Of a stretch of 64,000 nucleotides of DNA, positions 1,490-61,765 are shown piece by piece (position 1 is the stretch's first letter; each line of letters starts with the position of its first letter). The notes beneath the pieces were generated by a model that was not told where the DNA came from, did no database searches, and saw only the letters and a list, made by a program, of their open reading frames with translations. Position numbers and translations under genes: made by a program. The stretch comes from Leucoraja ocellata (taxonomy: Eukaryota), in NCBI GenBank assembly GCA_036785375.1, contig JAWMAR010000191.1, positions 992,001-1,056,000 of the forward strand, read 5' to 3'.

Positions 1490-1707
1490 GGGTTACACAA
1501 AAAAGCTGGAGAAACTCAGCGGGTGCAGCAGCATCTATGGAGCGAAGGAAATAGGCAACGTTTCGGGCCGAAACCCTTCTTCAGACCGTAACGGCCCAAA
1601 ACATTGCCTATTTCCTTCGCTCCATAGATGCTGCTGCACTCGCTGAGTTTCGCCAGCTTTTTTGTGTAACCTTCGATTCTCCAGCATCTGCAGTTCCTTC
1701 TTAAACA
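1490..1707. mobile_element. PLE pLTR-derived fold-back insertion with 14-bp TSD
   Basis: Inverted arms; CTGCTCCATTTCTT duplicated at 1476-1489 and 1708-1721; same sequence family as the UTR following the GIY-YIG fragment at 27040-27550. Confidence 0.85.
1554..1587 (-). ncRNA. Minimal type I hammerhead ribozyme motif
   Basis: Minus strand GGU-CUGAAGA-A-GGGU-UUCG-GCCC-GAAAC-GUU/GCC: core boxes, stem II with UUCG loop, 3-bp stem I, palindromic AACGUU in place of stem III. Confidence 0.7.
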
Positions 1708-2374
1708 CTGCTCCATTTCTTTACTGAAACCTCTCAAGTTTAAACCTCAAATTATATGGAGATATTTGGATGAGCCAGACATGTCACAAAAAAAGAGAGA
1801 TAAAGAGATTATGAGATAAAAGGAAGGAATTCAAGAAGGTGTAGTAATGTTTCATCAATTACAATTGGGAATTCACATGTCTGGAAATGGGACATTTTTT
1901 AGGAGGCTGACAACTGGATGGGGGTTATTGCAATGAAGCAGTGGTCCTGACTGTATTTGAAAACAAGGATGAGATTTTTTAAATTGAACCATTGTGGGAT
2001 CATAAACTGATTACATAAATAAGTAAGGGTATTGGATGACTTTTTGGTGCAAGCAATGCAATGGGGTCTAAAATATTGGATGCTTTCAAGGTCTCAAGAG
2101 AAAAACTGAAGAGGAATCATGACGGAGATATAAGAAAAACATGGATGAGATTTTCAGTATATACTGTAAGTTAAGTCAGGAACAGATCTGGCAATGTTAC
2201 TGGGTGGAACTGTACAGTCAAATTAATAGAATGGATATATTATTGGAAGCTATTTTGGGTCAGTCAGAAAGCTGGGTTGGGAATGACGTTTCAATTTGAG
2301 GCAGTATCAGAAGAGAGTTCACTTTCAATTATTTACCTTTTCATGTATGATCAAAACAATTACCGGATTTTATT

Positions 2375-2569
2375 TGTAGGAAAGAACTGCAGATGCTGGT
2401 TTAAATCGAAGGTAGACACAAAATGCTGGAGTAACTCAGCAGGACAGGCAGCACCTTTGGAGAGAAGGAATGGATGATGTTTCGGGCAGGGTCTCGACCC
2501 GAAACGGCACCCATTCCTTCTCTCCAGATATGCTGCCTCTCCCACTGAGATACTCCAGCATTTTGTGTC
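2375..2569. mobile_element. PLE pLTR fold-back insertion with 14-bp TSD
   Basis: Inverted arms; TACCGGATTTTATT at 2361-2374 and 2570-2583. Confidence 0.85.
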
Positions 2570-4104
2570 TACCGGATTTTATTGTCTTTGTACTGATTTG
2601 TGCTTCAAAATATTCAATCTTAACGCTGCCACCCTTCAGCTATTGCCTATATTAATTTCTCTTTCCACATTCAATTATATCTTCAGGGTTTTTTTATTAA
2701 TGGATTCAAAATAAGTTATTGAGCTTTCAAATATTTATTTTATAAAATCTGGTACGACATGGTTATTAAATTGTGAAAATTTTGGACAATAGCATAAGTA
2801 CTTTGCTTTGACAGGATAAGGCAAGATAAATAAGGTTTTGCCAATGGAAGGATTTCAAGTGCTGATGCAATCAATGCAGCAGATGCAAACAGAAAATGGT
2901 TATCACCAATTCTGGCAAAATTTCTCTTAACAAGCACCACTTGAGCAACTGCCAAGTAATTGCAACTCGGCAGGCTGCAGCAGATTGAGTAGAAAATGAC
3001 CTATTTCTGCTTTGAAAGGGTACATATCAAAAAGGGCTCATTCACAGATGAATATTTCATAATTTTAAAAAAATTGCGGAGAAGCAGGATAGTCGGGGTT
3101 GCAGTGCGATGATATCACAATATCACAAAGGCATTTTCATGAAATCTTCCAAGTTCATTTATTCCTGCTTCTGTTATTCAAGATGCTGTTCTTTTAGAGA
3201 ATAATTGGTTTGATTCACATAAAATCTCAAATAAAAATGAATCTGTTCATAGTCTATTGTCTCTTCTGAACCTGATAAACATACTGAGGTGGGTCTGAAA
3301 GAACCATGAATAAGTATGGGAAAGAAATCAGTGAAGCTCTGAAAAATAAAGGCCAAATGTTTTGTGGGTAGAGTGGATGTATCTTCATTAGGGCCCATTT
3401 TGTTCTGCTTGACCAGTCCGTTTTTAATTAAAAAAAAGAAAAGAGTTAGATTGTTGTCATAATGTAACGGGAGACAAGGTAAAGTTTTGCTTTATCTGCC
3501 TCATTCCATTTTCTAGCAATGGTAAGAATTCTAATAATATTCATATAATTCTCAGGGTGCTTGTTAAAACCTGAGATCAAAAGTGAAAGAAGTGTAAATA
3601 GGTTACTCTTTTGATTTCAATGCTTGACTTATAATTCTTCTGAATCAATCAAGCATAATGGAACCCAGTCCAACTCACTAACATTCAATGTTCCTCAGAG
3701 ACTCAGCTGCTCAGTGAAAGCCAAACATTATTTTTGCATCTTACGTTCAGTATAAAAATAAGCCATTTCTCACCTAGAATTAGATTATAGAAACAAAAAT
3801 TGTATCTAATACAGTGAATGCAAAATTGCCTGAGCTATGCAAAGACAAAATGGACAGAGTCATGTCAAAGAATCAGAAGGATAAAAATGGACATGACACA
3901 AGAAAAAAAAAAAGCTTTTTGACAAGAATCATTCCCAGGACATGAACATTATCAGCCTGGCTGGTATTTATTATTTATCACTTATTGTCCTGAAAGGGAA
4001 AGTAAGGAATTGGGAATGGTTTCCTTGTGTGCATGTGCTAAATGTGCAGAGTAGTAGCAGCTGCACATGGAATTCCATTTCCAAAACTGGGTACATAAGA
4101 TGAT

Positions 4105-6732: not shown

Positions 6733-6861
6733 AGAAACAAGGAACTGCAGATGCTGGTCTAACCAAAAGGACACAAAGTGTTAGAGTAACTCAGCAGGTC
6801 AGGCAGCATCTCCAGAGAACATGGATAGGTGATGTTCTGCTTCGGGACAATTCTTCAGACT
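6733..6861 (-). mobile_element. Single-arm PLE pLTR fragment
   Basis: GGAACTGCAGATGCTGG..GAGTAACTCAGC..TTCTTCAGAC family motif. Confidence 0.75.
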
Positions 6862-8745: not shown

Positions 8746-9274
8746 GTTGATAGAATATTGCTGGCTGAGATGTTGGAATAACTAACTCGTATTCTTTGGA
8801 TGGTATCATGGGACATCCTAAACTCAGTGTTTCAAAACAAATTAGCCCGAGCAAGACTGTGTTTACACTTGGATCTCCAAACTCAATTTTCCCTCTTTCT
8901 CCTTTTCAGTCTTTGTTATTATGCTGTGTTGCACAATACCTTTCTGCACAAGGCTGCTGACACCTAAACTATCTAAACCAGCCAACACATGGAACTGGAA
9001 AAATACTATCACCTGAAAATAACAAACTGAAATACTGTTTAACCAAATCCTCCGAAGGAAAAGTGAATCAATAACAGCTTCTTCTCCTATAAATAAGGTC
9101 TTGATTCGACCGACAGCTATGTTTGCATGGCTGCCATTAGACTCCTTAAACAGATATCAGCAGACAGAGAAAAGTATTCAAAGATGTGGTCCAAGCTACC
9201 CTGAAGATGTGTAACATTCCATTGTCTCTTGAGAATATCTGGCCCATGACCACACAAAGCAGAAAAAGAGCATG

Positions 9275-9375
9275 AAGATAGACACAAAATGCTGGAGTAA
9301 CTCAGCGGGACAGGCAGCATCTCTTCAGCATTTTGTGTCTATCTTCGGTTTTCAAGAATCTGCAGTTCCTTTCTA
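9275..9375. mobile_element. Short PLE pLTR fold-back with ~15-bp TSD
   Basis: CAGAAAAAGAGCATG (9260-9274) and CAGAGAAAGAACATG (9376-9390) flank inverted arms. Confidence 0.75.
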
Positions 9376-9475
9376 CAGAGAAAGAACATGGATGGAGAAC
9401 TTCGAGGCCATGAACTTGGAGCCCACAGAGGCCTTGTGTAAGCGGCATGCACTCCTTCACAAACTATACCTGGTC

Positions 9476-12482: not shown

Positions 12483-12592
12483 GGAGATGGCAGATGCTGA
12501 AATCTGAAACAAAAGGTAATCTGCTGGAATAATTCAGTAGTCAAGCAGCATCTGTGGAGAAAAAGGGATGGTCGACATTGCAAGTTGAACCG
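12483..12592 (-). mobile_element. Old PLE pLTR fragment
   Basis: GCAGATGCTGAAATCTG..GCAGCATCTGTGGAGA family motif. Confidence 0.55.
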
Positions 12593-12766: not shown

Positions 12767-12769
<3 letters not shown>

Positions 12770-17524: not shown

Positions 17525-17650
17525 TTAAGAGACTTCAGATGTTGGAAACCCAAACAATAAACAAATTGCTCGGAGAACTCAGCGGGTCAGGCAACACTAT
17601 GGAGGGAATGGACAGATGACGTTTCGAGGCAGGACCCTTCTTCCGACTGA
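17525..17650 (-). mobile_element. PLE pLTR fragment
   Basis: GAGAACTCAGCGGGTCAGGCA..GACGTTTCG..CCCTTCTTCCGAC. Confidence 0.65.
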
Positions 17651-17984: not shown

Positions 17985-18103
17985 TCAGACTGGAGAAGAG
18001 TCCCGACCCAAAACATCACCAATCCATGTTCTCCACAGATGCTGCCTGACCCACTGAGTTACTGAGGCATTTTGTGGCGTTTTCATCTGCAGTTCCTTGC
18101 ATC
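17985..18103 (+). mobile_element. PLE pLTR fragment
   Basis: GAAGAGTCCCGACCCAAAACATCACC..GCTGCCTGACCCACTGAGTTAC..CATCTGCAGTTCC. Confidence 0.7.
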
Positions 18104-21914: not shown

Positions 21915-22205
21915 GTTTTATCTCCCTCTTTTTCCCTCCTCCCATCATCCATACCTCTCCCTCCAGCCTTTCATTTTATTCCTCCTCTTCCTTCCTTATC
22001 TGCGACCGTTTTGGTTCCTTTTTATGTCCAGACTTTGTCACTGACCCCAATCACACCCCTCACTTGTATATCCACCCATCACTCACCAGATTTCTCCCCC
22101 TTACTCCATCAACATGAAGAAGGGCCTTGACCTGAAACATCGTATGTCCATCCCTATGCAGATGTCGCCTGAACTGCTGCTTTCCTCCAGTACTTTGTTT
22201 TTTTG
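21915..22205 (+). mobile_element. Decayed PLE 3' UTR/pLTR
   Basis: Pyrimidine-rich UTR followed by ATGAAGAAGGGCCTTGACCTGAAACATC (decayed hammerhead). Confidence 0.55.
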
Positions 22206-27031: not shown

Positions 27032-27039
27032 AAATTGGA

Positions 27040-27550
27040 CACATAAAGCAGGAGTAACTCAGCTTTCTGGAGAGAAGGAATGGGTAGCTTTTTGGGTTGA
27101 GACTCTTCTTCAGACTAGTCTGATGAAAGGGAAATGAGAGATATAGATGATGATGAAGAGAGATAAAGAACGGCGAATTAAAGACATTGCAAAAAATTAA
27201 TGATGATAAAGGAAACAGGCTATTGTTGGCTGTTAGCAGAAAATGAGGAGCTGGTGCGACTTGGGTGGGTGAGGGATAGAGAGAGGGATAGAGAGAGTTG
27301 GAATGCTGGGGTTGATTGAAGTTAGAGAAATCAATATTCACACCACTGGGCTGTAAGTTGCCCAAGTGAAGTATGAAATGCTGTTCCTCCAATTTGTGTT
27401 TATCCTCACTGACAATTGAGGAGACCGAGGACAGAAAGGCCTGTGTGGGAACGGGAAGGAGAATTAAAGTGTTTAACAACCGGGAGATCAGGTAGGTTCA
27501 GGCGGACCGAGCGAAAGTGTTGAACGAAACGATCACCCAGTCTACGTTTT
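27040..27550 (-). mobile_element. Penelope-like element 3' end: GIY-YIG endonuclease C-terminus plus pLTR
   Basis: Minus translation KRRLGDRFVQHFRSVRLNLPDLPVVKHFNSPSRSHTGLSVLGLLNCQ, frameshift, SEDKHKLEEQHFILHLGNLQPSGVNIDFSNF; then UTR and AGTCTGAAGAAGAGTCTCAACCCAAAA. Confidence 0.85.
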
Positions 27551-28408
27551 TCAATCAATTCTCAGGAGTGACCTCTGTGTCACAAGGCGAGCGGCATTTT
27601 GTGACTATCACTTTAACTCTGCTGAAAAACTAGAGGAAATGCATTGTTGGGTCCAGCATCAGAACCCTGGGTCCAAACATTATCATTGGTATAGAATTCA
27701 ACACAACAGCATCTCTCCAGATACATTGGAACTTGCATTCTGGGAAGATACAGGACAGGAATAAGCTGCCCACATGGCAAATCTATGCTGGAGAAACTAC
27801 ACTGCTCCATTAATAACAATAAAGAGAGAAAAAGCCGTTAGACGGGAACAATTAAAAGGCATCACACTATGGAAAAGCAAAATTATTCTCTGTAGTGAGG
27901 ATTTGCTGTAATCCTGGTCCCAAAGGAGCTGCGTAAATCATCAACAGAATTAGCATTTATACTCCCAAGGGACTGATGGTTTGGCGATGAGTAAGGGTGA
28001 TAAATGTTAAAGGAACTCTTTCACAGACTGCTGGTTTTATGTCCCCAATGCAGTGCACCTGTGCGCAGTGTAACACACAAAAAATATCTTTATCCTCTAC
28101 TAATGCATGCATGCATACATACATCTGCCTGCTAATGAGTGCATATGACAGATATAGATGGATTTAACTCTTTTAATGCTGAAAATAATTTAAATTGATG
28201 CTTGTCATCACTGAACTAATGTAGTGTATGAATAAATGTACTTAGTCATTTTGCCTACCTCCATGACTATTTTTTCAGATTATATATACATTGTATTCAG
28301 ATTATTTTTTCAGATTATTATACATTGTAATGCTTAGTGCTCAGTGTTGGTGCAAAGATATTTGGTATTTAATGTCTGCAGGCCATTAGGACTGCCTTCT
28401 CTATCCTG

Positions 28409-28493
28409 TAGATAGACACAAAAAGCTGGGACAGGCAGCATCTCTGGAGAGAAGGAATGGGTGACGTTTCAGGCCAAGACCCTTCTTCAGACT
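28409..28493 (-). mobile_element. PLE pLTR fragment with intact hammerhead core (28460-28493)
   Basis: Minus AGU-CUGAAGA-A-GGGUC-UU-GGCCU-GAAAC-GUC/ACC. Confidence 0.75.
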
Positions 28494-29721
28494 ATCCCAT
28501 GTTGTAGTGGACATTAAATATTAAGATGCTTCTGTGAAAATTTGCTCAACTTGAAAACTTCATACTTTTGAACTGGCATTGGGTTCATAAAATACGAAAA
28601 TGCTTGTAATTATGAATTATTTCAAAAATATGTTATATGGAACAGCATTCTGAAATCCATTTATTTTGAAGCATTATGTGCCAATATATAGAAATGTAAA
28701 ATAAAAATGATTGCATTATTGCACGATTCCATTGCAAAAATACTTTCATTAAGTCTTCAGGTTCTCATCTCTCTGCTGGTTCCAAATGTAAAACCAATTT
28801 GAAGTGGAGGAGGTGTATTTGCTTGATATTAGTTGGTTGATGGATTATTCTTTCCTAAACACTCTGTCCCACTAAACCCTCCAGATATAATGGCAAAAAT
28901 CTCACCTCACTGCTTCGAGTTGTGGGGAGATTAATTGCTTGCTAATGCACCAGATAACTCTTTCAACACGAATTGAATAGATTTGATACAAAGCACATTA
29001 AAAAAGTTACAAAATTCACTCGAGTGAACAAGTTCAAGAATAAAATCATATCATGGCGTAAACAGTCTTTGTTGTCTGCTTTGAGGAGTCCTTATCAAAT
29101 GAAATTACTAGCCAGGAAGCAGAGTTTTCTACTCCTTGGTGTCTCTTATGTTATTTTTTTAAATAGTGATTTTTTTATTAACCTTTTTTCATCTTTTTAT
29201 TGTCCACAAAATATATCGAGCAAGTCAGATCTCCACTGAATCCCATGCCTTAAACGCACTGTCTCAGATATTTATTACACTCCATTACGTATTAACTGCA
29301 GTTTACTTTCAACTCATCCTACCATTATTTGATCGGAAGAGCCTTTGGTATATATTGACTGAACAAACTAAATTCCTTTTCCTATTACCTGGTGTTTTGG
29401 GATTTGTGGCATTGTTTTGAGGATTGCATTCTGTGGTTTAGATTCTTCTTCCATGAGAATAAAAAGTGTTGACTTGGTTTTGATTGAACAACAAGAGGAT
29501 TGTTGACAATTAGAAGGCCAATAACTTGGTGACTAAATAATATTAAATATATTTTTCAGTAAACTGAATTTATCCCAGATTAGGAGCAAATAGTTGTTAC
29601 AGGATTTACCTTCAAGAAGATTATGATAAATATTAATTGTAGGTTTATCCCTAAAAATGAGTTATTCCTACTCTGAGCAAATTTTTGGTTTACATTCCCT
29701 CAAGTGTTATTCTGTGGGTTG

Positions 29722-29908
29722 TAGAAATGAGGAACTGGAGATGCTGGTTTGTCAAGGAAAAACAAAAAATTCTGGAGTAACTCATCGGGTGAGATAGCAT
29801 CTCTGAAGAACATGCACAGGTGATGTTTCTGAAGAAATGACACCTCTCCATGTTCTCCAGGGATGCTGCCTGACCTTCTGAGTTACTCCAGAATTTTGTA
29901 TCTTTCCT
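29722..29908. mobile_element. PLE pLTR fold-back
   Basis: Inverted arms CTGGAGTAACTCA / TGAGTTACTCCAG. Confidence 0.7.
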
Positions 29909-30367
29909 TGACCTGGAGATTGCTAATTTACTAGTTAACATTTACTAATTAATGTGGTCCTTGTCACATTGATATTTCCATTTGCATCTGTGTGGGGAAT
30001 ATTAAAATGCATTTATTAAATGTGGAAAATTAATCAGGGATAACATAATCCCATCAAGCAATTCACAATTTTATTTTCCTCTCATTTGTTTTCCCTTCCC
30101 TGTTATGGAGACATCAATTACTTGCAAAATGATCATACTTATGGTTCAGCACCTTCATAACCTGGTCATTGTTATATGTGATACTTAACTAAAAGCTTCA
30201 GTAGGCTATTCACCAATGAAACTTGACCCAAATTCTGATCTCCACTCAATTGGGAAAAACATTTCTCCAGAATCATTCCTATTCTCAGCTGTACTTTGGT
30301 ACAGCAGTTACCCAAGATAAGATCAGATCATTTATTGCAGATGATTTTGAAATCTGGAAACATTTAT

Positions 30368-30545
30368 GAAGAAAAGGCACAAAATGCTGCAGTTACTCAG
30401 CAGGTCATGCTGCATCCCTGGTGATAGAAGAAGGGTTCTGACCCGAAATGTCATCTATTCATCTCTTCTGGAGATGCTGCCTGACCCGCTGAGTTACTCC
30501 AGCATTTTCTGTCTTTTTTCATAAACTAACATCTGCAGTCCCTTG
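30368..30545. mobile_element. PLE pLTR fold-back
   Basis: Inverted arms; GAAGAAGGGTTCTGACCCGAAATGTC. Confidence 0.7.
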
Positions 30546-31813
30546 TGTCAACATTTATAATACTCAGTTACACTATGAATAAGTTGCACTCTTTTCAACA
30601 CGGAGTCTTCGTGGATATTGTTCCATGGGAACTAAATAGCATTACCCTGTATTTCTTGCTACCAGAAATGGTACTCACTTCAGATTTATGCATGTACATT
30701 GACTGTGGGCAAATTGTTCAACTGTGGAGGGGGGAATCAATCTGGTGAAGCACGCATTAAATAGCCAATTTGTCAATATTCAGGAACCAGGGCTAATTTC
30801 CCCTTCTGTGGAGATGTACCGCTGGTGTTTGGAGTTTAAACCAAGCCACTGAGAGGTGTTGCACTTTGGAAGGTTGAATGTAAGGAGTGTGTTTACAATT
30901 AATGACAAGACCCTTAACAGCATTGATGTGCAAAGGGATCTTAGGGTCCAAGTTCATAGCTTACAAAAGAGGGCAGCACAAGTCGAGAGGGTGGTAAATA
31001 ATGCATAAAATATGCTTGCCCTCATTGCTAGGTGCAGGAAGTCTTGATGCAGTCTAGATTGCTTAGGCTGTATTTGGAGTATTGCACGCAGTTCTGGTCG
31101 TCCCATTACAGAAAAGACATGGAAGCTATGGAGAGGGTACAGAAGAGGTTTACCAGGATGCTACCTGGATTAGAGGGTTTCAGATACAGGGAGAAGTTGG
31201 ATGGACTTGGATTGCTTTCTCTGGAACATTGGAGGTTGAGGGGAGATTTGAGGGTAAATTATGGGAGGTGTAGATAGGATAGAAAGTCAGAACCCGGTTT
31301 ACCATGGAAATGTACAACACTAGATGGCATAGCTATATGATGAGAGGGGGAAATATAATGGAGAAGATTGGGGCACGTTTATTGCACAAATTTGGTGAGG
31401 GCCTGGAACACATTGCTAGCTGTGGTGGTGGAAGAGTCAGATACCATAGTGGCATTTACAGTGGCCTCCATAATGTTTGGGCCAAAGACCCATCATTTAT
31501 TTATTTGCCTCTGTACTCCACAATTTGAGATTTGTAATAGAAAAAAATCACGTGGTTGAAGTGCGCATTGTCAGATTTTATTAAAGGGTATTTTTATATA
31601 TTGTGGTTTCACCATGTAGAAATTACAGCTGTGATACATAGTCCCCCCATTTCAGGGCACCATAATGTTTGGGACACATGGCTTCATAGGTGTTTGAAAT
31701 TGCTCAGGTGTGTTTAATTGCCTCCTTAATGCAGGTACAGGAGAGCTCTCAGCACCCAGTATTTCCTCTAGTCTTTCCATCACCTTTGGAAACTTTTAGT
31801 GCTGTTTATCAAC

Positions 31814-35990: not shown

Positions 35991-36651
35991 TGGACTCTTC
36001 AGAAGGTACAAGGTACAAGGGAGGGAGCTTGGTTTGGGCATAACTTGGTGCCACATGTTGCTGACATACATATTTTGGAGATTTTTTTTCATTGTGTGTC
36101 AAAATACAAACATCGTCTTTTCAATGGCAACGTGTTGCAGCAACTCTTTTTGTTAACCTGTTCATTGAACTTTTATTGTCCTTGTCTGTGCAGGTCTAAA
36201 GTGAAATCAACTTCCTACATTTTGAAAATAACACTTAACATTGAATTGGGTGCAATTTGTATAATTGTTTGTGTTACCTCATTGTGTTGTAAATGCTTAA
36301 TCATTCACAAATGTTTGAGGAGTGAATCTTTCTTCAAATGACCCTAGGTCAGCATTGATGTTTGAAAATCCCTAATGATAGCCAACTGATCAAAGAATAA
36401 TATTGACCAGATCTAATCTAATCTTCTCAGTAAAACAAACTGCAAGTTGGTGTGGGAAATATCATACCTTGTTAGTGAAATGTAATCCCAACATATTTGG
36501 AATGTGTATGAAAAGCGCCAGTGGATCATCACTTGCAACTCTAGCTTCAGATAATGTAGCCGCATCCACATCATATAATTATTGGAAATATCTAAAATAA
36601 TTACATAGAATAAATATACAGAGTTCCTAAAGAGATCATTGACTCATTAGG

Positions 36652-36861
36652 TAGAACAAAAATGTTGGAGAAACTTAGCGGGTGAGGCAGCATGTATGGA
36701 GAGAAGGAATAGGCGACATTTCGGGTCGAGACCCTTCTTCAGACAGTCCGAAACCTTGCCTATTCCTTCTCTCCATAGATGCTGCCTCACCCGCTGAGTT
36801 TCTCCAGCATTTTTCGTCCATCTTTGATTTTTCCAGCATCTGCAATTCTTTCTTAAACATC
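36652..36861. mobile_element. PLE pLTR fold-back with TSD
   Basis: GACTCATTAGG at 36641-36651 and 36862-36872; minus-strand hammerhead GUCUGAAGAAGGGUCUCGACCCGAAAUGUC. Confidence 0.85.
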
Positions 36862-38259: not shown

Positions 38260-39077
38260 ACGCCAGCCTATGAAATGCTTATTTATATAATACTGGATCC
38301 TGTAGCCCAATGCTTACGTGGCAATACAATCCTGTATTTCCAACAATTATGATTTTTAAGAGTCATTGAGAGCGATGCAGTTCAGAAACAGGCTGGCCAT
38401 TAAGCTTTCATTTTGACACTAATCCTCCCCTGACCCAATTTATCCTCACCCCATTTTGCATCCTCACAGAACTCATGTTCGCTTTCAGTCAGGTTTGACA
38501 ATAACTAGGTGGTTCGGCATATATTTGCATCGGCAATTCATCTATAATCTTCCCAATCTTATTCCTTGCCTAAGATCTCCTGGGCTGCATGAGAGTGCAA
38601 TTCTAAATGCTGATTATGCATCAAAAGCTCAAAGAATTTGTTGTGTCTGGGTGCTAGTAATGGTAGGTCTGTGAATACATTTGTCAAGTTGTTAGGGAAT
38701 AGAATTTGATGTTGTAGTAACTGAGGTTGAATACATGGGTGAAGTCATATTTCTTCCTGAAATGGAACTAAGCACTTTGGGCATCTTATCGTTACGTTTA
38801 TTTCCTGTAAATGTAGGATTAATTTAAACAGGTGGTTTCATCATGGATAACCATGTGCATTTGCCACAGCTACAACATAACAAATCTGGCACATACAGTA
38901 TGAAACAATGCCCAATGATGTGCAGCACATTTCTGGATTCCACTTCTAGGATCTTACTTTGCTTTGGTTTGGCCTGTGTCATCTGCAAGCTATTCCTCTT
39001 GAAGCAAGCTTGCATAGCATGTGTGAGTTGTGTGTTTATGTGACTCGGAAGTGCCAATCTTGAGTAGAATCCAGGAA

Positions 39078-39185
39078 CGAAAATGCTGGAGTAACTCAGC
39101 GGGACAGGCAGCATCTCCGGAGAGAAGGAATGGATGCCGTTTCGGGCCGAGTCCCTTCTTCAGACTGCAGTTCCCTCCTACACAT
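39078..39185. mobile_element. PLE pLTR fragment
   Basis: AATGCTGGAGTAACTCAGCGGGACAGGC..CCCTTCTTCAGAC-TGCAGTTCC. Confidence 0.75.
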
Positions 39186-41440: not shown

Positions 41441-41683
41441 TGTATGGGAAGGATCTGCAGATGCTGGATTACACCAAAGATACATATAAAATGCAGGAGT
41501 AACAGCGAGACAGGCAGCACCTCTGCTTAGAAAGAATGGGTGACTATTTGCGTTGAGACCCTTCTTTGACTATAATTTGAAATCACCACTTATTTTCCAA
41601 AGAGGGGTCTCGACCCAAAACATCACCCATTCCTTCTATCCACAGATGCTGCATTGAGTTACTTCAGCATTTTGTGTCTCTCT
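41441..41683. mobile_element. PLE pLTR fold-back with 15-bp TSD
   Basis: TCTGAATT(A/G)TTGTAA at 41426-41440 and 41684-41698. Confidence 0.8.
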
Positions 41684-42005
41684 TCTGAATTGTTGTAAAA
41701 TGGCATGTGCCGACTGCTTAGCAATCTCCTAAACAATGCTCTGGGATTAATGGTTAGTTCTTGATTAGAGCAGAGATTTGTATATTTTAAAGTGTAAGGT
41801 TTAAGATAAGATCTTCAGTGCCTGATCTTATCTCTGCTTAGTTGCCTACAGGTTTGTATTGGTAACTAGTCTGACTCCTATTACTTCAATGAATTTAATC
41901 CAAATGTTCCTGCAGCTGGATTCCGAAATAAAGATACTGCCTCAAGGTTTGTACTTTGGTTGAGAAATAATTTGAGGTGGCTAAGATAGGTGCCTGTGAT
42001 ACGGA

Positions 42006-44019: not shown

Positions 44020-44110
44020 GTCTGACAGAAAGTCCTGACCCAAAACATCACCTATCCATGTCTTCCAGAAATGCAGACTGACCCGCTACAAATACTTAGC
44101 ACTTTGTATT
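44020..44110 (+). mobile_element. Decayed PLE pLTR fragment
   Basis: GTCTGACAGAAAGTCCTGACCCAAAACATCACCTATCCATG. Confidence 0.55.
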
Positions 44111-44409
44111 TTGCTATTAGTTAAACACCTCTGTTTCGGGTCTTTTTTTTGCAATCTTTGATGGAGCTGAACATTCGATTAAGTTCCAGGAGCATTGGAG
44201 AATTCTGCATCATCCCAAAGTTGTTCTGAATTGAGGCTTTGGTAAATAATCAACTTGATGAGCAGACTCTGTTTCTCATTCAATGGATGCTATTTGGCTT
44301 GCAGAGCAATGTCCACATTTATTTCCCCTCGGGTTAATGGCAGTGAAGCTGGGTGGCAAGGATACGCTATGATCGGTGAGAATGAGTGTGCAGCTATTTT
44401 TAGGCATTA

Positions 44410-48193: not shown

Positions 48194-48324
48194 GTGTTTA
48201 AGAAGGAACTGCAGATGCTGGAAAATCAAAGGTATACAAAAATGCTGGAGAAACTCAGCGAGTGCAGCATGCATCTATGGAGCGAAGGAAATAGGCAATA
48301 TTTCGGGCCGAAACCCTTCTTCAG
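48194..48324 (-). mobile_element. Single-arm PLE pLTR (same subfamily as 1490-1707)
   Basis: TGTTTAAGAAGGAACTGCAGATGCTGG..TTCGGGCCGAAACCCTTCTTCAG. Confidence 0.82.
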
Positions 48325-49330
48325 CAAGCTTTCTTCTGCTTTGATACGAACCATCCGTAATCTGGGCAATTCAAATATATTCAGGTCTATCGACTCCAGC
48401 AGATCAATTGAAATTCATGAGAAACAAGGAATATCTTGTCAGTGCTTCCTGTATTCTTGAAAACATGAAATTAGCTAAAGATGAGATAGGACATGTTGAC
48501 AGTAAAATTTAAGGGCTGTGATGTGAGAATTTATGTTGCACATTGTTAATGTGAGAAATAAAACTGAAATATAATAACATTCTAGAGCCAATTCATCTCT
48601 CTGGCTGTTGTTAAGTCCCTTTACAGGGAATGGAACATAAAGACCTTGACATAAAGTCTTTAGCAATGCTGAGAGAGTCTCACACCATTGAAAAAGCAAC
48701 CTTGCAGAGGTGTGATGGTAAACTGAGGCTCCATCTACTCTCTCAGTGGAGGTACAATATATCTTGACTCTTGTTCTGAGGATGAGCATGGGGACCATAG
48801 AAAGATGCAGCAGGAAAACAGGCCCTTCAACTCATCTAGTCCATGCGGACCTATTTAAACTAATCTTACATTGCTCTCGTCTTTTATTCTCCCCACACTC
48901 CCAGCAATTCCCCCAAGATTCTGCCCACAAGAGGTAATTTACAATCTCCAGTTAACCTACCAAATCACACACCTTGGGGATGTGGGAGTACCTTGAAGAA
49001 ACACATTGTCTTCTTATCGAGTCCACACCACAAGATTAGAAATTGTTCAGCCAGATCTGAACACACTTCTCGACATCTGCATACAATGACGTCTTGCACT
49101 TCTTGTGTGCAGTGGTGGAAAGATTGGTGGAAACAGGGCTGCGACGTGAATGCTCTTTCCTTGAACCCAACACATTCAGTCACAGAAAAAAGTATAAATT
49201 CTATGCAGACAGGCCCGAAGGTCAGGATTATAATTTCTAGTGTTGTTAGGCAGTCTGTCCAGACTTCCTATTGAATAGGAAAAGCAGCCAGCAAAGACAA
49301 AGCAAAGAATCTTTTATACTCTTTTCTGTC

Positions 49331-49533: not shown

Positions 49534-49840
49534 AGGGCGGCACAGTGGCACAAATGGTAGAGCTGCTGTCTCACAGCGCCAGAGACCAGGGTTTGATCCC
49601 GACCTCGGGTTCTCTCAGGGTGGAGTTTGCATATTCTCCCTGTGACCAGGTGGGTTTCCTCCTGGAGCTCCAGTTTCCTCCCACGGACATTTGGGTTTGT
49701 AAATTAATTGGCCTCTGTAAATTGCCCCTAATCTACAGGGAGTGACTGAGAAAGTGGGATAAGATAGAACTAGTGTGAATCGATGACCGATGATCGGTGG
49801 GCTGAAGAGCCTGCTTCCATGCTGTAAGCTGAAAACTAAA
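49534..49840 (+). mobile_element. HE1-type V-SINE
   Basis: GGGCGGCACAGTGGCACAAATGG head, V-domain, CR1-like tail. Confidence 0.87.
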
Positions 49841-50700: not shown

Positions 50701-50995
50701 TTAGTTTAGTATAGAGATACAGTGTGGAAACTGTCCCTTCGGCCCACCGAGTCCAACCCCCCCCCCCCACTAACACTATCCTACACACACTAGGGGCTAT
50801 TTACATTTTTACCACGTCAATTAGCCGACAAACCAGACATCTTTGGAGTTTGGGGGGAAACCAGAGCTCCTGGAGAAAACCCACGCAGGTCACAGGGAGA
50901 ATGTACCCATAGTCAGGATCGACAGCACCCATAGTCAGGATCGAACCTGGGTCCCTGGTGCTGTAAGGCACCAAGTCTATCGCTGTGCTACTGTG
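50701..50995 (-). mobile_element. HE1-type V-SINE
   Basis: Tail CCCTTCGGCCC; small internal duplication of ACCCATAGTCAGGATCGA. Confidence 0.85.
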
Positions 50996-51363
50996 AGTAA
51001 CTATACCCTCTACAACTTAGGGATGTTAACTGATGAAAGAATGTTAATTAAACAATTCAGTGTATTAGTAACACTTTTCCATATTTTTCTTGTAAAGATT
51101 TGAACCCCTTCACCTCTGCTCTTGGCAGGGACAGTGTTGCACCCTCTGAAATAAGTCTCTGCATTTAAATCTATCAGTTTTTCAGGTTATTTTATAAAAC
51201 TAAATCAACTAAATAATATACTCAATTAGGGATTTATAATTGAGGCAAGAGTCTCAATAAAGGAGATATGGGACCTGAGTATGTCAACTCTCACTCTGGT
51301 CCCAGAGGGAATAAAGCTAAAGAAGACTGTATTTACTAGTAAGCAAATACTGACTAGACACTG

Positions 51364-51490
51364 GATAGAAGGAATGGATGAATGTCACCCGTTCCTTTTA
51401 TAGAGAGATGTTGCCTGTCCCGCTGAGTTACTCCAACATTTTGTGCCTATCTTTGGTGGAAACCAGCATCTGCCTTTCCTTCCTACACAG
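51364..51490. mobile_element. PLE pLTR insertion with 13-bp TSD
   Basis: TGACTAGACACTG at 51351-51363 and 51491-51503. Confidence 0.82.
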
Positions 51491-52187
51491 TGACTAGACA
51501 CTGATGTCAGGAGAAAACTGGATATATTAATGGTTCAGTTTTCATTTATTTTAAACCACACATAGGGTCTAAGCACTAAGCCGGAGTTTAATTGCAATAT
51601 CTTTGCATGAAAATTTCCAACACCCACAATTTGAAGCTGGTCTCATATAATATACTTAATCTGTACTTTGAGTAGATTCATAATTAAATGAAACCTATTC
51701 TTCTAATCCAAATGATGCAGTAAAATGGCAGGTACATGGAACTTGTTGACCAGGGGCCCAATTCAGAATAAGTGCTTTAGTTCCCCATTATCTTCCCCCA
51801 CTCACCTTCTTGTCAGTTGCATAAACTGTAAAAGCCCTTTATATGTTTTTAAGTGTCTCTTGTGTAAGGTCCAAGACGTCCATAGATATTTAAAAATTAA
51901 TCGTTCTTAAATATAATTAAAAAAAATTAAAAACATAATCAAAAACACTAAACTGGAGCCATAGAATCATAGTAGATGGAAATTGCCCCATTGCCCACTT
52001 GTCCATGCTGACCAAGTTGGCATATAGGGCGGTTTCCTTTTTCCTGCATTTGATGCACAGCGTTCTAAATCTTTCCAATCAATATACTTGTTGTTACATA
52101 AATATTGTTTACATAAATATATCTGCAACATTTATTTAAATTTTAAATTACTTATTATGACATGGAAAGAGACCATTTAGTCCATGT

Positions 52188-52329
52188 GTTGGTAGGAATT
52201 GTGCAGATGCTTGTTTATACCGAAGATAGATACAACTGAAGAAGGGTTCTGACCCGAAACATCACTGAGTAGGTTTCTCCAGAAATGCTGCCTGGCCCGC
52301 TGAGTTCTTGCAGCATTTTGTCTATGTTT
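52188..52329. mobile_element. PLE pLTR fold-back with 16-bp TSD
   Basis: ACCATTTAGTCCATGT at 52172-52187 and 52330-52345; plus-strand CTGAAGAAGGGTTCTGACCCGAAACATC. Confidence 0.82.
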
Positions 52330-53033
52330 ACCATTTAGTCCATGTTGGTGCCCAGCAGGAAATCCCATTTTTCCTCATCCTTATTTCTCAGTATCCCTGC
52401 AGCGTATGCTCTCTCATGCGGCCCGTCAACTCCCACTTGATGCTTTTTGTCATTTTCCTACGCCCAAGGCCATTTATCCTGCCAGGAGCTAGGAGCTATG
52501 GAGGGAAAACAAACCATATGGGGAAGATCCACAGTGACAGGGAGAACATGCAAATTCCACACAGAATTGCCTTTGAAAAGGGACACAGCACATTCACCTG
52601 CTGCACCACCATGCTAATGTACATACTTTTCTCTTTGCCTCCTAACCCTTAAACTTACAATCCCATTGAACTCCATGGGGTTTCAGATCCTGACATGGCC
52701 TGGAATCTGAGATGTGATTTACCAGAATAAATGAGGAAAATCAGCATAACTGCTGAGTGTTCACCACAATAGTACATTGATACGTTGAACAGTATTCCAG
52801 GACCCCTTTCTTTGATTGTCTTGATTTTCCAACTACTATATTTGATTAAATGGCTCCAAATGCAAAATAATCGGGCATTGAAATTTGGGCCATTGTATCA
52901 TGAAATGATTGTAATCAATTTTCATTCTTGGAAAATTGTCCCGCTATTATTATTGTAAGTATCGATCATCACTTTATCTTTGCAACAAAAATAAGAAAAC
53001 CTTTGGGTTTTGAAAACCTTTGTAAAGCTTTTA

Positions 53034-53292
53034 GGGGCAGCACAGTGGAGGATTTGCTGCCCTACAGCTCAGAGACCCAAGTTCGATCCTGACTATGGGT
53101 GCTGTCTGCACGGAGTTTGTACGTTCCACCTGCACTCCAAAGACGTGCAAGTTTGTAGATTAATTGACTTTGGTAACATTGTAAATTGTCCCTAGTGTGT
53201 AGGATAGTGATAATGTATGTAAGGGGTGATGCTTTGCTGGTAGGCACAGATTCGATGGGCTGAAATGCCTCTTTCCACACTGTATCTCTAAA
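53034..53292 (+). mobile_element. HE1-type V-SINE
   Basis: Head, B box GTTCGATCC, tail. Confidence 0.82.
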
Positions 53293-55733: not shown

Positions 55734-56056
55734 GGGCGGCAAGGTACAGCAGTGGAGTTGCTGCCTCACAGTGCCAGTGACCCAGGTTCGATCCTGACTA
55801 TGGGTGCTGTCTGTAACAGAATTTGTACATTCTCCCTGTCACCTCCGTGGGTTTTCTCCAGGGATCCCAGTTTCCTCCCACATTCCAAAGGTGTATGGGT
55901 TTGTGGGTTAATTGGCTTGGTAAACTAATAATTGTCCCCAGTGGTATGTTGTATAGTGTTAGTGTGTGGGGATCGCTGGCCAGCACGGACTCAGTGGGCT
56001 GAAGGGCATGTTTCCACGCTGTATCTCTAAAATAAACTGAACTAAACTAAACTAAA
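55734..56056 (+). mobile_element. HE1-type V-SINE, full length
   Basis: Head, GGTTCGATCC, V-domain, CR1-like tail, (ACTAA)n. Confidence 0.9.
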
Positions 56057-56171
56057 AACATCTCCAACTTGCATTATACCAAATAAAATCTACAAAGGTG
56101 CATTTACTCGGTTAAGTTGGTATACACACAACCCCGTATAAAAGAGAACAACAATCTAATACTAATCTAAT

Positions 56172-56376
56172 CACTAGCTTCTCATTCCCACTCAACAAAC
56201 AGCTAACAATGGCCTGTTTGCTATATCATCGTTATCTTTTTGCATATCTTTTATTCATTGTTATCTACATCATCGTCTATATGTCTCATTTCCCTTATCC
56301 CTAAGGCACTCATTCCTTCTCTCCAAAGATGCTGCCTGTCCCACTGAGTTACTCCAGCTTTTGTGTCTATCTTCAA
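56172..56376 (+). mobile_element. PLE 3' UTR/pLTR fragment
   Basis: CAGCTAACAATGGCCTGTT..ATCATCGTT matches the UTR at 27130-27250 (reverse); pLTR tail follows. Confidence 0.75.
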
Positions 56377-58519
56377 TCTAATATACTCACAGGGTTGATT
56401 TCCATTCCACAAAAGATTTCTTGGTAACATCCTGTGAGTGCGAAGCGTACTAACTGTTTCCTTTACTAATCTTCATCATCTGACATTTAGGAGGACATAT
56501 TGATATTGAAATGTTAAGAGAGATGATCATCTGGCAATTCAATCGAGTCCAGAAATCAGCAGAAAACCAAATTGGGTTAATTTAGATGTCCATACAAATG
56601 GACAACAATAAAGGCCAGTGCCTCCCAGGCAAATCTGGTACAATGTGGTGAAGGTTTCCTTTAGATCAGACTATATTTAAAAAAAATATAGAAAACCATG
56701 ATATTACAACATCAAGATAATGTCTTGAGAGACCAGTGATAATTCTATCTCCATATGAGTCAGCTCGAACAAAGGTTGTACCACAAAAAATACATTTTAC
56801 AACATAGACACAATCATTACAGAAACATGGTTAAAAGAGAGACACGACTGTCAGCTCAATGTGCCTGCGTTTCGGTGGTACTCAGAGAGGTCATAACAGA
56901 GGGCACGTCGACGGAGGCATTATGGATTGAACTAAAAAATAAGCAAGGAGTAATCTAAGCCAGCGGGAGATAGAGGATCATACATGTGGACAGATTACAG
57001 AAGGATGTAAGAAACAATGTTATTGTAGTGGGTGACTTGAACTTCCCCAACATTGATTGGTATTTATTCAGTGCAAGAGGATTAGATGGGACAGAATTTA
57101 TTTGGTGCACCCAAGGCGATTTCTTTAAAGAGTAAGTGGATAGTACGTCTCGGGGAGGGTACATACTGGACCTTGTATAGGGAAATGAGCCTGGCCAGGT
57201 GATTGTTGTTGCAATGCAAGAAGAATTTATGGATAGTGATCATAACCCTATACATTTTAAGATTGCCTTGCATAGGAATAGGTCTGAATGTTGGAGGAAG
57301 GTACTTAATTGGAGTGAGGCAGATTACAATGTTATTAGACAGGAGCTAATGAAGATAGATTGGGATCAGTTGTTGTTGGGTAAGTCCAAAGAGGACATGT
57401 GGGAGTAATTTAAAGACTAGTTAATCAAAGTTCAGGATCAGCATGTTCCAGTAAGGAGCAGGGATTGGGAAGGCGAGGTAAGGGAACTGTGCTTGACCAA
57501 AGAGGTTGTAAACTTCATCAGGAAGAAATAGGAAGTGTATGACCGGTTTAAGAAGGTTGCATCAGACTGGGCTTATAAGGAATATAAAGCGAGGAGGAAA
57601 TGTCAGGTGGGCAATTAGAAGGGTCAGAAGAAGCCATGGAATGTCATTGGTGAGTCAGATTAAGGAAAACTACAAGGCTTTTTATATATATGTTAAAAAT
57701 AAAAGGGACCAAGGAGAATGTAGGACCGTTCAAAGATAAAGGAGGGCATGTACGCTTGGAGTCGGTGGATGTAGGTCAGACTTTGCATTTGTATTCACCG
57801 AGGAGAAGGACTTGGAGAACAGCGAGGTCAGTGTGGAGAATACAAATATGCTAAGCCAGTTTGAGATCAAGAAGGAGATGGTGCTGCGGCTCTGGAAGAA
57901 CATTAAGGTGAATAAGTCCTCAGGGCCTGATGTGATCTATCCCAGGGTATTGAGGGTGGCCACAGAGGAGATTGTGGGTGCCTTGTCCAGGATGTTTCTT
58001 TCTTCTCTAGCTACAGGGCGAGTCCTGGAGGACTGGAGATTGGCCAATGTTGTTCCTTTGTTTAAGAAAGGAAGTTGAGAAAATCCAGAGAACTATAGGC
58101 TGGTGAGTCTCATGACAGTGATAGGGAACCTATTGGAGAGAATTCTTAGAGATAGGATTTACCTCCATTTAGAAGAGAATGGGCTAATCAGGTACAGCCA
58201 GCATGGTAATGTGTGCAGCATTGTACCTCACTAAATTGATTGAATTATTTAAGGTGAAAAAGAAGATTGATGAAAGTAGGTTGGTGGACATTGTGTACAT
58301 GGATTTAATAAGGCTTTTGAGACTTATCGTAGACTGATCTAGAAGATCGGCAGCAGGAGACTTGGCGACGGCAGCGGGTGCCTCGCAGTCAATGACCGTA
58401 AGGGGAGTTGGGAAGACAATGGCGTGGGGGGACACCCGTGAAGAACAATGGAGGACCAGGTCTGAGGGGGGGGGGGGAGGGTGGGCACTCTAGTTTAGAA
58501 TCCTCTGCCCAGGGGATAA

Positions 58520-59205
58520 AGGGACTGTCCCACTTGCGTGTCCTTGGCACGCAAATTACGCGACCCCATGGTCGCGTTGAGGCGCACGGGCATCATATGA
58601 CCCCGCGGAGTGGTCCCACTTAGAAGCGTGGAGGGGTATGTAGTTGTGCGTGACATCATGTGGGGCTCTGAGATTTTTGTAGTGAACAAAATCTTTGTGC
58701 GCTAACGGCCTGTTGCGGAACTGACGGCCAAAGTGGGACAGGCCTGGCGTGCCGCAACGTCTCACCTTTAACAGCAGCAGAAGTAGTCAAACGATCGCCG
58801 AACTCGGCCTGGGGCTCACGGTCATTGCAGTCCGGATCCGCCCCCACTTCCCCTCCCAGAGCGGGGCCAAGAAAATTGAAGATAGACACAAAATGCATGA
58901 GTAACTCAGCGGGGCCGGCAGCATCTCTGGAGAGAAGGAATGAATGACGTTTCGGGTCAAGACCCTTCTTTTCAGACTGAAGAAGAGTCTCGACACGAAA
59001 CGTCACCCATTGCTTCTCTCCTGAGATGCTGCCGGTCCCGCTGAGTTACTCCAGCTCTGTGTCCATCTTCAAATTACGTCATGCGCTCCAGACGGCTGTG
59101 TGTAAGCATGTAATCGCACCCGACCGTCGCGGGACCTTCGCGGCTCAATGCGACCACGAGGTCGCGTAATTTGCATGCCAAGGACACGTGAGTGTGACAG
59201 GCCCT
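58520..59205. mobile_element. PIF/Harbinger-type MITE, TAA TSD
   Basis: AGGGACTGTCCCACTTGCGTGTCCTTGGCACGCAAATTACGCGACC / GGTCGCGTAATTTGCATGCCAAGGACACGTGAGTGTGACAGGCCCT; TAA at 58517-58519 and 59206-59208. Confidence 0.87.
58878..59070. mobile_element. Symmetric PLE pLTR palindrome inside the MITE
   Basis: Near-perfect ~95-bp arms; plus-strand CTGAAGA(58977)..GAAACGTC(59004); AAATT on both sides. Confidence 0.82.
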
Positions 59206-59559
59206 TAAGTCTGTGTTTGTTTGTTTGTTTGTTCATTCGTCCTGGTGAAGGCGCTGTGCACACTGCAGTCAGACAACATTCGCTTGTCTTTTTCTTTTTG
59301 TTTTCACTTTTAATTTCAAGTTTTTGTGTACCTTGTGCATTGTGACTGATGGCAGACCAATTTCCTTCCGGGGATGAATAAAGTTTTATCGTATCATACC
59401 GTATCGTATCGTAAGATTCAGATATATGGGGTTCATGATGAGTCGGTCGTGTGAACTGGCTTATCCATAGATGACAAGCGAGTTGTGGTAGAAGGAAGCT
59501 GGAGGACCATGGCCAGTGGAGTTCCGCAGGGATCTGTGCTAGAACTTCTGCTGTTTGTG

Positions 59560-60329
59560 CAGGGGCGGAAAACCCGGGGGAGTCAGGGGGGGACACGTCC
59601 CCTCCATGCTTTGAGAGGTGGTGGACATCCCTCCCCCCCCCCCCAAGTTTTTGTAATCCAGATTTTAAAATCCGGTGATTGAGGGCACCGATTGGAGGAG
59701 AGATACGTCGGTCGGCAGGCAATGGGGGCGGGACATGATTCAGCGCGATGATTGGAGGAGTGGGGGGGGGGAGGGGGTGGGACTGAGGATAGAGTGCAGT
59801 GGATTGGAGCAAAGATCTTATAGCAGAGCTCCACTATAAGATCTTTGGATTGGAGGAGGGAGACGTAGCACAGACCTGCGCTTCATCCGCAGCCAGGATC
59901 GATCCCGGCCAGGTCTCCGGCGCTGTCCGACCCCCTCCCGAGTACCCCTCGCGGGTGGCCAGAGAGGTCGGCAGCAAAGACAATTACAATACACAATAGG
60001 ATCTAGGATCTATAGTCGGGAATCAGACAGGCCAGTGCAGAGCATCAGCGCTAAACCCAGCTAACTCTGCCTGTCCCGCCAGGAGAGCTTACAGCCCTTC
60101 CTGGACTTGCGGGAAATATGGGCAGCGCGGAGAAGTAGCGCTGGTGTCCCGTCAGTCCAGACAGGGCTGTAGTTAACCTGGTGAGACGGGCAGTTGAGCT
60201 GCATTTAGCGCTGGATTGAGCCTCCGAAGCCTCGCGCACACGCGTGTGTATGAATGTGCGCATGCGCGCGCAGCCACCAAAAAATTGAGTCCCATCCCCT
60301 CCATGTTTTGATAGCGAGTTCCGCTCGTG
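59560..60329. mobile_element. Non-autonomous hAT-type element, 770 bp, 8-bp TSD
   Basis: TGTTTGTG at 59552-59559 and 60330-60337; termini CAGGGGCGGAA / TTCCGCTCGTG; splits CR1 right after the PQGSVL motif. Confidence 0.8.
59810..59847. mobile_element. 38-bp micro-MITE, 14-bp perfect TIR, 8-bp TSD
   Basis: CAAAGATCTTATAG-10nt-CTATAAGATCTTTG flanked by GATTGGAG at 59802-59809 and 59848-59855. Confidence 0.7.
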
Positions 60330-61556
60330 TGTTTGTGATATATAAATATAAATAACCTAGATGTAAATGCAGATGGGTTGGCAAGTAAGTTTACTGATGA
60401 CACCAAAATGGGAGGAGTTGCAGACAGTGAGGAAGGCTGTCAGAAGCTACAGTAGGATATAGATCAGCTGCAGAAATGGGCAGAGGAATGGCAGATGGAG
60501 TTTAACTTTCAAGAGAGAGCTAGATAGGGCTCTTAAAAATAGCAGAGTCAGGGTATATGGGGAGAAGGCAGGAATGGGATACTGATTGGGGATGATCAGC
60601 CATGATCACATTGAATGGCTGGCTCAAAGGGCCGAATGGCCTATTCCTGCACCTATTGCCTATTGCCTACTGTCTAAGTCAAGGAAGTGCAATGTGTTGT
60701 ACTTTTGGAGGTTGAAATAAAGGAGAGAGCATACAGTTAATGGCAGGACCCTTAACAACATTGATGTGCAGAGGGTCCTTGGAGTCCAGGTTCATAGCTC
60801 ACTAAAAGTGGCAACACAACTAGAGTGGTGTACAACTGATAAGGTGTAAAGAACACATATGGTATGCCTGTCTTCATTGCTAGGGGCATTGAGTACAAGA
60901 GTTAGGAACTTCTGATGCATCTCTATAAGACTTTGATTAGGCCGCATTTGGAATATTACATGTATTTCTGGTCGTCCCATTACAGGAATGATGGGACAGC
61001 TTTGGAGATGCTGCCTGGATTGGAGGTTTCAGCTACAGAAAGAGATTGGGTATTCTTGGATTGTTTTTTTTCTGGAATGTCAGATGTTGAGGAAAGATTT
61101 AATAGAAGAATATAAAATTATGAGAGGCACAGATAGAGTAGACAGTCAGAAATGTTTTCTCGGGGTGGAAATGTCCATTATGGGCCAGAAGGCCTGTTCC
61201 TGTGCTGTACTGTTCTATGTTTGAGGACAGTAAGAAGAATGGTTAACAGTAACAGTAAACAGTGAACAGTAAGAATTAAGGGACAGAAGTTTAGGGGTAA
61301 TATGAGGGGGAACTTCTTTACTCAGAGAGTGGTAGCGGTGTGGAATGAGCTTCCAGTGGAAGTGGTGGAGGCAGGTTCATTGGTATCATTTAAAAATAAA
61401 TTGGATAGGCATATGGATGAGAAGGGAATGGAGGGTTATGGTATGAGTGCAGGCAGGTGGGACAAAGGGGAAAAAAAATTTGTTCGGCACGGACTTGTAG
61501 GGCCGAGATGGCCTGTTTCCGTGCTGTAATTGTTATATGGTTATATGGTTTGTATT

Positions 61557-61765
61557 GAAGTGCTGGAGTAACTCAGCAGGTCAGACAGCATCTCTGGAGT
61601 AAAAATATGGGTGACGTTTCGGGTCAGAACTCTTCTTCAGACTTCGGTCCTGACTCGAAATATCACCCATCCATTTTCTCCAGAGATGCTGCGTGACCCG
61701 CTGAGTTACTCCAGCACTTTGTGTCTAACTTTGATATAAACCAGCCTCGGGGGTTCTTTGTTTCT
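61557..61765. mobile_element. PLE pLTR fold-back with hammerhead core (minus 61610-61643)
   Basis: Inverted arms AAGTGCTGGAGTAACTCAGC / GCTGAGTTACTCCAGCACTT; minus AGUCUGAAGAAGAGUUCUGACCCGAAACGUC. Confidence 0.8.

Follow-up and report, generated by a model that had tools for sequence, protein, structure and literature searches.

The stretch of Leucoraja ocellata DNA analysed here (contig JAWMAR010000191.1, positions 992,001 to 1,056,000, assembly GCA_036785375.1; 64,000 nucleotides, hereafter ‘the window’) is strewn with short repeats that carry the core of a hammerhead ribozyme (HHR), and it raises the question of how such repeats came to be copied so many times and whether their ribozymes matter to the host. 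The answer favoured here, with a probability of roughly 0.7, is that a Penelope-like element (PLE) with a Neptune-type reverse transcriptase (RT)/GIY-YIG protein has inserted short copies of the end that bears its hammerhead, and that these copies are likely 5′ run-off products.

Each repeat unit (an ‘arm’ of about 95 to 135 nt) consists of a hammerhead-like core, a body of about 70 nt and an optional 37-nt extension, or tail. A profile built from window copies recovers 31 arms at 22 sites there and nothing in the reversed or complemented window, in agreement with an initial annotation that had counted about 20 dispersed copies. The density of arms in the window is typical of the 3.44-Gb genome, because 36 arbitrarily placed 10-kb pieces (360 kb) hold 177 arms, 17 of them strictly intact, covering 4.4% of bases; extrapolated, these figures give about 1.7 million arms and about 160,000 intact cores (Poisson range 9 to 26 on the 17). 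Genome-wide, a descriptor that fixes every core nucleotide, the G10.1-C11.1 pair and the palindrome finds 120,549 intact cores (2 in the reversed control), and a tighter family pattern finds 64,678 (control 0). The very large hammerhead reservoir that had been foreseen is thus real, but the accompanying figure of one copy per 3 kb is made up largely of decayed arms, and the spacing between intact cores is about 29 kb. Ribozyme type and element class are already known, and it is the copy number that is exceptional: the minimal hammerheads (min-HHRs) of PMC4209133 number about 9,000 in X. tropicalis and about 4,000 in the coelacanth, as counted with different descriptors.

Judged by sequence, the repeats are Penelope-derived and originate from the pseudo-long terminal repeat (pLTR), as had been proposed: the hammerhead motif terminates RT/GIY-YIG units of 3.8 to 4.0 kb, and one copy in the window, at 27032-27549, still has a GIY-YIG fragment attached (70% and 61% identity by tblastn, E 2e-22), a direct link within the window from the arms to a PLE open reading frame (ORF). 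Many cores are preceded upstream by a pyrimidine-rich untranslated region (UTR) and a GIY-YIG C-terminus, and a 251-aa C-terminal query returned 187,721 first-look candidates, with 150 scored matches at 92-100%. A linked frame (763 aa, locus L110) combines RVT_1 (30.2 bits, cut-off 29.6), a CxxxxCxxC linker and, at the C-terminus, a GIY-YIG match (E 1e-3), and its closest named relatives, at 62-69%, come from sharks and rays. By the Cys linker, a criterion taken from PMC3846280, the protein would be of Neptune type. Three of eight fetched long loci (L227, L228, L231) contain the partial tandem that forms pLTRs in endonuclease-bearing (EN+) PLEs, running from a truncated upstream copy through a tailed pLTR, an ATG about 165 nt past the core and the ORF to a second pLTR. 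The order of RT and C-terminal GIY-YIG, the Cys-rich linker between them and the partial tandems are all features of Neptune-clade EN+ PLEs (PMC8557442, PMC3846280). Unlike those elements, the skate element has an ORF whose N-terminal portion contains a long run of proline-rich repeats, its target duplications mostly measure 9-16 bp (against 8-10 in Adineta; PMC3846280), and stub-sized insertions predominate. In one subfamily (L126:1300-1430, L232) an ATG lies inside the pLTR body and opens a 41-codon upstream frame that stops just past the main ATG.

The arrangement of the arms points the same way. Head-to-head pairs outnumber tail-to-tail pairs by 34 to 1, and tandem pairs by 34 to 12, in the 360-kb sample; 9 of the 22 window sites are adjacent head-to-head pairs, with a tenth (52178-52335) in which one arm is partly deleted. 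Arms terminate at one or other of two fixed, AC-rich 3′ ends that are separated by 37 nt. Of the 26 scorable pairs, 19 have exactly one tailed arm (a further 8 pairs have a short 3′ end), as do 8 of 9 in the window, where about half would be expected if the arms were independent. An inverted 5′-truncated copy, a one-ended tail of 30-40 nt (here 37 nt) and a target-site duplication are known hallmarks of EN+ PLEs, the Neptune clade included (PMC8557442, PMC3846280). Forty genomic palindromes, chosen for likeness to the insertion at 1490-1710 and 92-100% alike (several share one target in another repeat), differ in their junctions, and 12-16 nt duplications flank 37 of the 38 that were scored, the other 2 of 40 being unparsed; each palindrome was therefore built at insertion. 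A reading of the repeats as a miniature inverted-repeat transposable element (MITE) or other fixed palindrome is rejected on account of the variable junctions. As a separate observation, one target site within another high-copy repeat is filled in many loci (L003-L008, L045, L048, L053, L056), with at least three different junctions, and is either a hot spot or the result of later duplication.

A biochemical precedent is available in PAc, a Poseidon element of the green anole, which primes at two AC-rich sites bounding its tail, downstream of the HHR, on both target strands, and uses uncut RNA for insertion (PMC11167929). Its ORF starts in stem II rather than about 165 nt past the core, it belongs to a different clade, and the available text of that study describes no clustering of 5′ ends.

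In the skate the 5′ ends do cluster. Among 60 young copies with exact cores, representing 7.7 Mb of one contig (C1) and with lengths limited by the references, 32 start 0-7 nt before C3 (15 of them at -2 and 7 at -3), none starts at 8-61 nt, and 28 start at least 62 nt upstream; under memoryless truncation about 2% would be expected. Counts across the genome agree, in that 36,086 exact young cores show a non-template base at -3 in 5,782 cases and at -4 in 3,509, and are templated to -8 in 11,691. RNA reads, taken from about 1-6% of each of four raw runs (fragmented or single-cell libraries, possibly from other species), run on into unlike sequence, and most of these breaks fall at three points: -3/-2 (places 1253/1254) and each of the two 3′ ends (1348/1349, 1384/1385). 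The boundary bears the motif YCAGTCT, kept across families with different 3′ UTRs, and its YCAGT is kept although the C and A are unpaired in stem I. The initiator (Inr) consensus is YYANWYY, to which YCAGTCT conforms. Penelope of D. virilis starts within its pLTR at an Inr (PMC2377424).

The same boundary might instead mark a place where, on a tandem RNA produced by read-through, the RT pauses strongly or meets a block of bound protein at the hammerhead. It does coincide with the stem I end, the hammerhead is where many partner arms end, and neither a start site nor a clear cap G was observed; yet stem I is only 2 bp, its 3′ strand is copied first and its predicted pairing probability is about zero, the conserved upstream C and A are unpaired, and the known Penelope start lies at an Inr in the pLTR (PMC2377424), all of which makes this explanation unlikely.

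The short copies are true insertions: a shared word of at least 8 nt stands on both flanks in 25 of 32 (6 of 300 in the control), and the scored palindromes have the 12-16 nt duplications given above. That result bears on the suggestion that the solo and palindromic units began as longer insertions and were cut down afterwards, through recombination or hairpin deletion, or else that they are assembly artefacts. Such trimming has been proposed for solo pLTRs that lack target duplications in Adineta (PMC3846280), and internal deletions are present in the window pairs at 9273, 51364 and 52178; the duplications, however, directly flank the 25 short copies, and independent RNA reads show the same ends again. 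For young copies trimming is already largely refuted, and the suggestion as a whole is very improbable.

Short and long copies interleave in a tree, with 16 changes against a shuffled mean of 17.9 (99 of 500 shuffles being as low), and subfamily alleles are common to both. This counts against a view in which the short and palindromic copies form a self-propagating non-autonomous element, resembling a short interspersed element, a MITE or a retrozyme, whose solo copies are transcribed and which the PLE protein mobilises in trans. The roughly 1.7 million arms extrapolated from the 177 sampled, the fixed 5′ and 3′ ends and the short cis region that suffices for PAc (PMC11167929) all suit such an element, and the same ends would arise from any solo copy that had an internal promoter, perhaps as a part contribution. 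Animal non-LTR retrozymes are likewise derived from pLTRs, non-coding, often monomeric and equipped with a type I HHR (bioRxiv 2026.07.22.740005). They form head-to-tail tandems, however, whereas skate solos and head-to-head pairs prevail, tandem arrays are a minority (12 against 34), no head-to-tail units each with a complete HHR were found in the window, and junctions differ among copies 92-100% alike. It appears that the autonomous element generates the solos and head-to-head pairs afresh, and mobilisation in trans is regarded as a doubtful alternative.

Reading the stubs as 5′ run-off products of the PLE, the sequence of events would be as follows. The GIY-YIG domain would make a staggered cut in the target, and each nick would prime cDNA at one of two internal sites, about 95 or 130 nt into the element RNA, as PAc does in vitro. 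That RNA would begin at the A of YCAGTCT, an initiator-like start just upstream of the core, such that cDNAs primed on the 5′ copy would stop at the RNA 5′ end, 2-3 nt before C3, and would then join the host or the opposite cDNA through microhomology; cDNAs primed on the 3′ pLTR would yield the longer 5′-truncated copies. The hammerhead would be inherited cargo, with uncut RNA serving as the template. Cleavage products as templates are rejected, since none of the 177 arms begins at the cut site (model positions 35-40).

A further and more tentative proposal likens the stubs to the strong-stop DNA of retroviruses, of which they would be the Penelope counterpart: cDNA would run off at an initiator 3 nt before the hammerhead, its jump to another template would build pLTRs and partial tandems, and where the jump failed a dimer would integrate the cDNA as a solo or a one-tailed palindrome. 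At two loci (L229:1629-2434 and L233:2119-2821) a pLTR copy starting at AGT is fused inside the 5′ part of another copy's ORF, about 570-600 nt downstream of a first pLTR; such joints would be expected if a template jump starting at the RNA 5′ end were misdirected.

Several observations weigh against the run-off interpretation or qualify it. The 60-copy sample comes from 7.7 Mb of a single contig and includes duplicated long copies, and the tree of short and long copies is of low resolution (69 columns, 3 starred branches). Many ends at -2 coincide with a host GT, a microhomology that blurs the exact end. The four RNA runs show no position where many molecules start, and a cap-derived G is not clear: in hand counts the base before GT is G in 38, C in 33 and T in 29 of the first 100, and the base before AGT is G in 26, A in 46 and T in 28. 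As to the protein, the GIY-YIG match of the 763-aa frame falls under the Pfam cut-off (19.7 against 22.6), the Neptune placement stands on the Cys linker, and none of the fetched long copies has a fully intact ORF, every ORF seen being broken.

The window itself displays the range of ages and forms that such insertions take. Its arms are listed below, with a strand for single arms and none for pairs.

1490..1710: young head-to-head insertion; minus arm 1491-1589 has the full HHR core and is tailless, plus arm 1592-1708 begins inside stem II and has the 37-nt tail; 14-nt duplication at 1476 and 1708; 40 genomic copies.
1557..1584, minus: the sole window core with every canonical feature (CUGAAGA, extra A, GAAA, ACGU palindrome, GUU cleavage triplet); 4-bp stem II of G-C, G-C, G-C and U.G.
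2375..2576: head-to-head pair, single tail, both cores gone; 14-nt duplication at 2361 and 2570.
6734..6861, minus: single tailed arm, stem II decayed (profile search).
9273..9377: collapsed head-to-head pair without core (profile search).
12487..12590, minus: old single arm without core (profile search).
17527..17649, minus: old single arm, mutated core (profile search).
17986..18100, plus: old arm, mutated core, with a short antisense remnant upstream.
22114..22200, plus: old arm, with pyrimidine-rich 3′ UTR-like sequence upstream.
27032..27549, minus: longer 5′-truncated copy, from GIY-YIG C-terminus (27318-27549) through 3′ UTR to HHR-bearing pLTR end (tblastn).
28406..28494, minus: single arm with GUC triplet; boxes and ACGU are intact and a G.U pair closes stem II.
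29726..29912: head-to-head pair, single tail, without core.
30375..30548: head-to-head pair, single tail, mutated core; 9-nt duplication.
36648..36860: head-to-head pair, single tail, minus-arm core with C15.2>U; 11-nt duplication.
39075..39185, minus: arm with U16.1>G; upstream, what is left of an antisense tail.
41442..41685: head-to-head pair with 29-nt spacer, single tail, mutated cores.
44020..44121, plus: old single arm (profile search).
48195..48327, minus: young single tailed arm, stem III palindrome gone (CpG decay).
51364..51495, plus: tailed arm, core gone, with a short antisense remnant upstream; 13-nt duplication at 51351 and 51491.
52178..52335: pair, antisense (tail) arm partly deleted, plus-arm core with G16.2>A; 14-nt duplication at 52172 and 52330.
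56305..56380, plus: arm with 3′ UTR upstream, HHR core deleted.
58871..59075: near-symmetric tailless pair, both arms extending to the core region; plus core with a stem II mismatch.
61552..61767: head-to-head pair, single tail; minus core with a stem II mismatch.

Other mobile-element fragments lie at 19323-20332 (minus), 47216-47758 (plus), 32868-33779 (minus) and 33737-34096 (plus), with Pfam matches to RVT_1 with ALKBH8_N-type matches (resembling long interspersed elements), zf-RVT and a DDE_3 transposase; positions 38123-38259 are 137 N.

The claim of the initial annotation that these repeats carry hammerhead cores holds for part of them: 17 of the 31 window arms reach C3, both boxes with U16.1-H17 are kept in 7, and the full core (boxes, stem II pairs 1-3 and ACGU palindrome) is kept in 2, at 1561-1584 and 28467-28490, the latter with stem II closed by G.U. 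All six motifs that it had singled out as the cleanest are present at the positions it gave, but the one at 36714 carries C15.2>U, that at 52236 carries G16.2>A, and those at 58977 and 61610 are mismatched at stem II pair 2. Rfam gave no match at the gathering threshold in the whole window; at E<=10, positions 1400-1800 gave 14 matches, all below that threshold and mostly to hairpin-type (miRNA-precursor) models, with no hammerhead among them.

Where the core survives, its anatomy is that of a minimal type I hammerhead, as had been proposed: the C3-A9 and G12-A15.1 boxes with U16.1-H17 are found in subfamily consensuses and at the 120,549 genomic sites as well as in those 7 arms. An extra A (101 of 111 arms) had been entered as a caveat, and stem III had been described as collapsed to a palindrome; an extra nucleotide between 9 and 10.1 and a palindromic stem III are defining traits of PLE min-HHRs (PMC4209133). 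The skate repeats share with these the CUGANGA and GAAA boxes, the pair G10.1-C11.1 (G-C in 64 and G.U in 20 of 111 arms), the palindromic 15.2-16.2, and a preponderance of solo copies with some opposite-strand pairs. They differ from the min-HHRs of S. mansoni, which have 7-8 bp in stem II and 4-5 bp in stem I (PMC4209133). Here stem II is 4 bp with a tetraloop, and stem I has just 2 bp (first U-A or U.G, next G-C, with A.C at the third position), no helix I of 4-5 bp being present. Stem II varies at pair 4 (U-A in 79, U.G in 13 of 111 arms), where the change is one-sided; no two-sided change was seen within the repeat family among the 111 arms, and the stem has 4 rather than 5 bp. A second PLE family keeps the boxes with an unrelated yet paired stem II.

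Core columns are more conserved than body columns (0.91 against 0.83; p 0.006, 111 arms, in a sample that favours those extending to the core). Values of 0.85 or above are, however, also reached by 40 of 60 body columns, and the contrast is clearer against the divergent UTR than against the body.

The initial annotation had further suggested that intronic copies could cut host pre-mRNA. Taken in full, this reading has intact cores in introns acting on the pre-mRNA either singly or, in trans, as dimers, and strongly enough to be of consequence for the host. In its favour stand the 120,549 intact cores, the (selection-biased) conservation contrast, the abundance of the unit in RNA reads and the capacity of the PAc HHR to cut with the help of protein. 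PAc cleavage in fact needs protein, the uncut RNA being the insertion substrate (PMC11167929); no activity was seen with min-HHR monomers of S. mansoni and little with its dimers (PMC4209133), and 8 of 9 frog dimers showed no cleavage (bioRxiv 2026.07.22.740005). Folding predicts that the active form is unfavourable both as monomer and as dimer. The 5′ strand of stem II is predicted to pair with a downstream UUCCUUC, stem II has a pairing probability of 0 in 9 of 10 folds and 0.19 in the other, the hammerhead-like dimer is put at -7.1 kcal/mol against -25.0 for the best dimer (the active-like form lying 18 kcal/mol higher), and forming the core inside the 1491-1710 hairpin would cost +29.9 kcal/mol. 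Reads across H17 in run X21 number 1,859 and 1,767 on the two strands, about equal, although this is weak evidence (strandedness unstated, mostly decayed copies). No host exon or gene was found in the window: its frames (35 and 127, with 145 best chosen of 298 passing the filter) gave no Pfam match besides other retroelement and transposase fragments, and the RNA reads on 39,000-58,900, the only part covered, derive from repeats, with no GT-AG joint among those shown. With no arm among the 177 starting at the cleavage site either, the proposal is unsupported and improbable. Host transcripts would likely seldom be cut, because the majority of cores in the genome have decayed or, by prediction, are sequestered. 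The head-to-head pairs, about 300,000 in number if the 34 in 360 kb are extrapolated, would form long double-stranded hairpins in transcripts, and these would probably affect the host more than self-cleavage would.

Two further PLE-related features were observed. One is the second PLE family noted above (loci L011-L036, for example L032:3628-7873 and L031), a two-ORF element recovered in the GIY-YIG family search and rejected as a partner of the repeats on the grounds of a different hammerhead, no match to the repeats and no tblastn match in the window. Its first ORF (624-637 aa) has a weak SGNH/GDSL-like match (E 0.003) and its second (759 aa) has RT, Cys linker and GIY-YIG, with many open 759-aa frames in tandem arrays of about 6 kb; the two overlap. 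TTAGGG repeats occur within 16 of the first 20 loci, and the family, whose protein bears an endonuclease, seems to be directed at telomeric repeats in a vertebrate. The other is an array at L035:986-1441 of about seven 66-nt head-to-tail pLTR-body units without a catalytic box, which reads as a pLTR-born minisatellite.

The origin of pseudo-LTRs and inverted ends is stated to be open in PMC2377424 and PMC8557442. Within the literature covered on run-off or strong-stop models, solo pLTRs and elasmobranch PLEs (subscription journals lying outside it), no title or abstract opening states a run-off model; the family or its 5′ boundary may already stand in the supplements of PMC4209133 or PMC11167929, in Repbase or in Dfam. 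To that problem the skate genome adds scale and resolution, in that its young junctions record where reverse transcription begins and where it stops, and the discrete 5′ end together with the one-tail pattern gives a direct test of how pseudo-LTRs and inverted ends originate. If the strong-stop proposal is true, tens of thousands of young junctions would map the jump step at base resolution.

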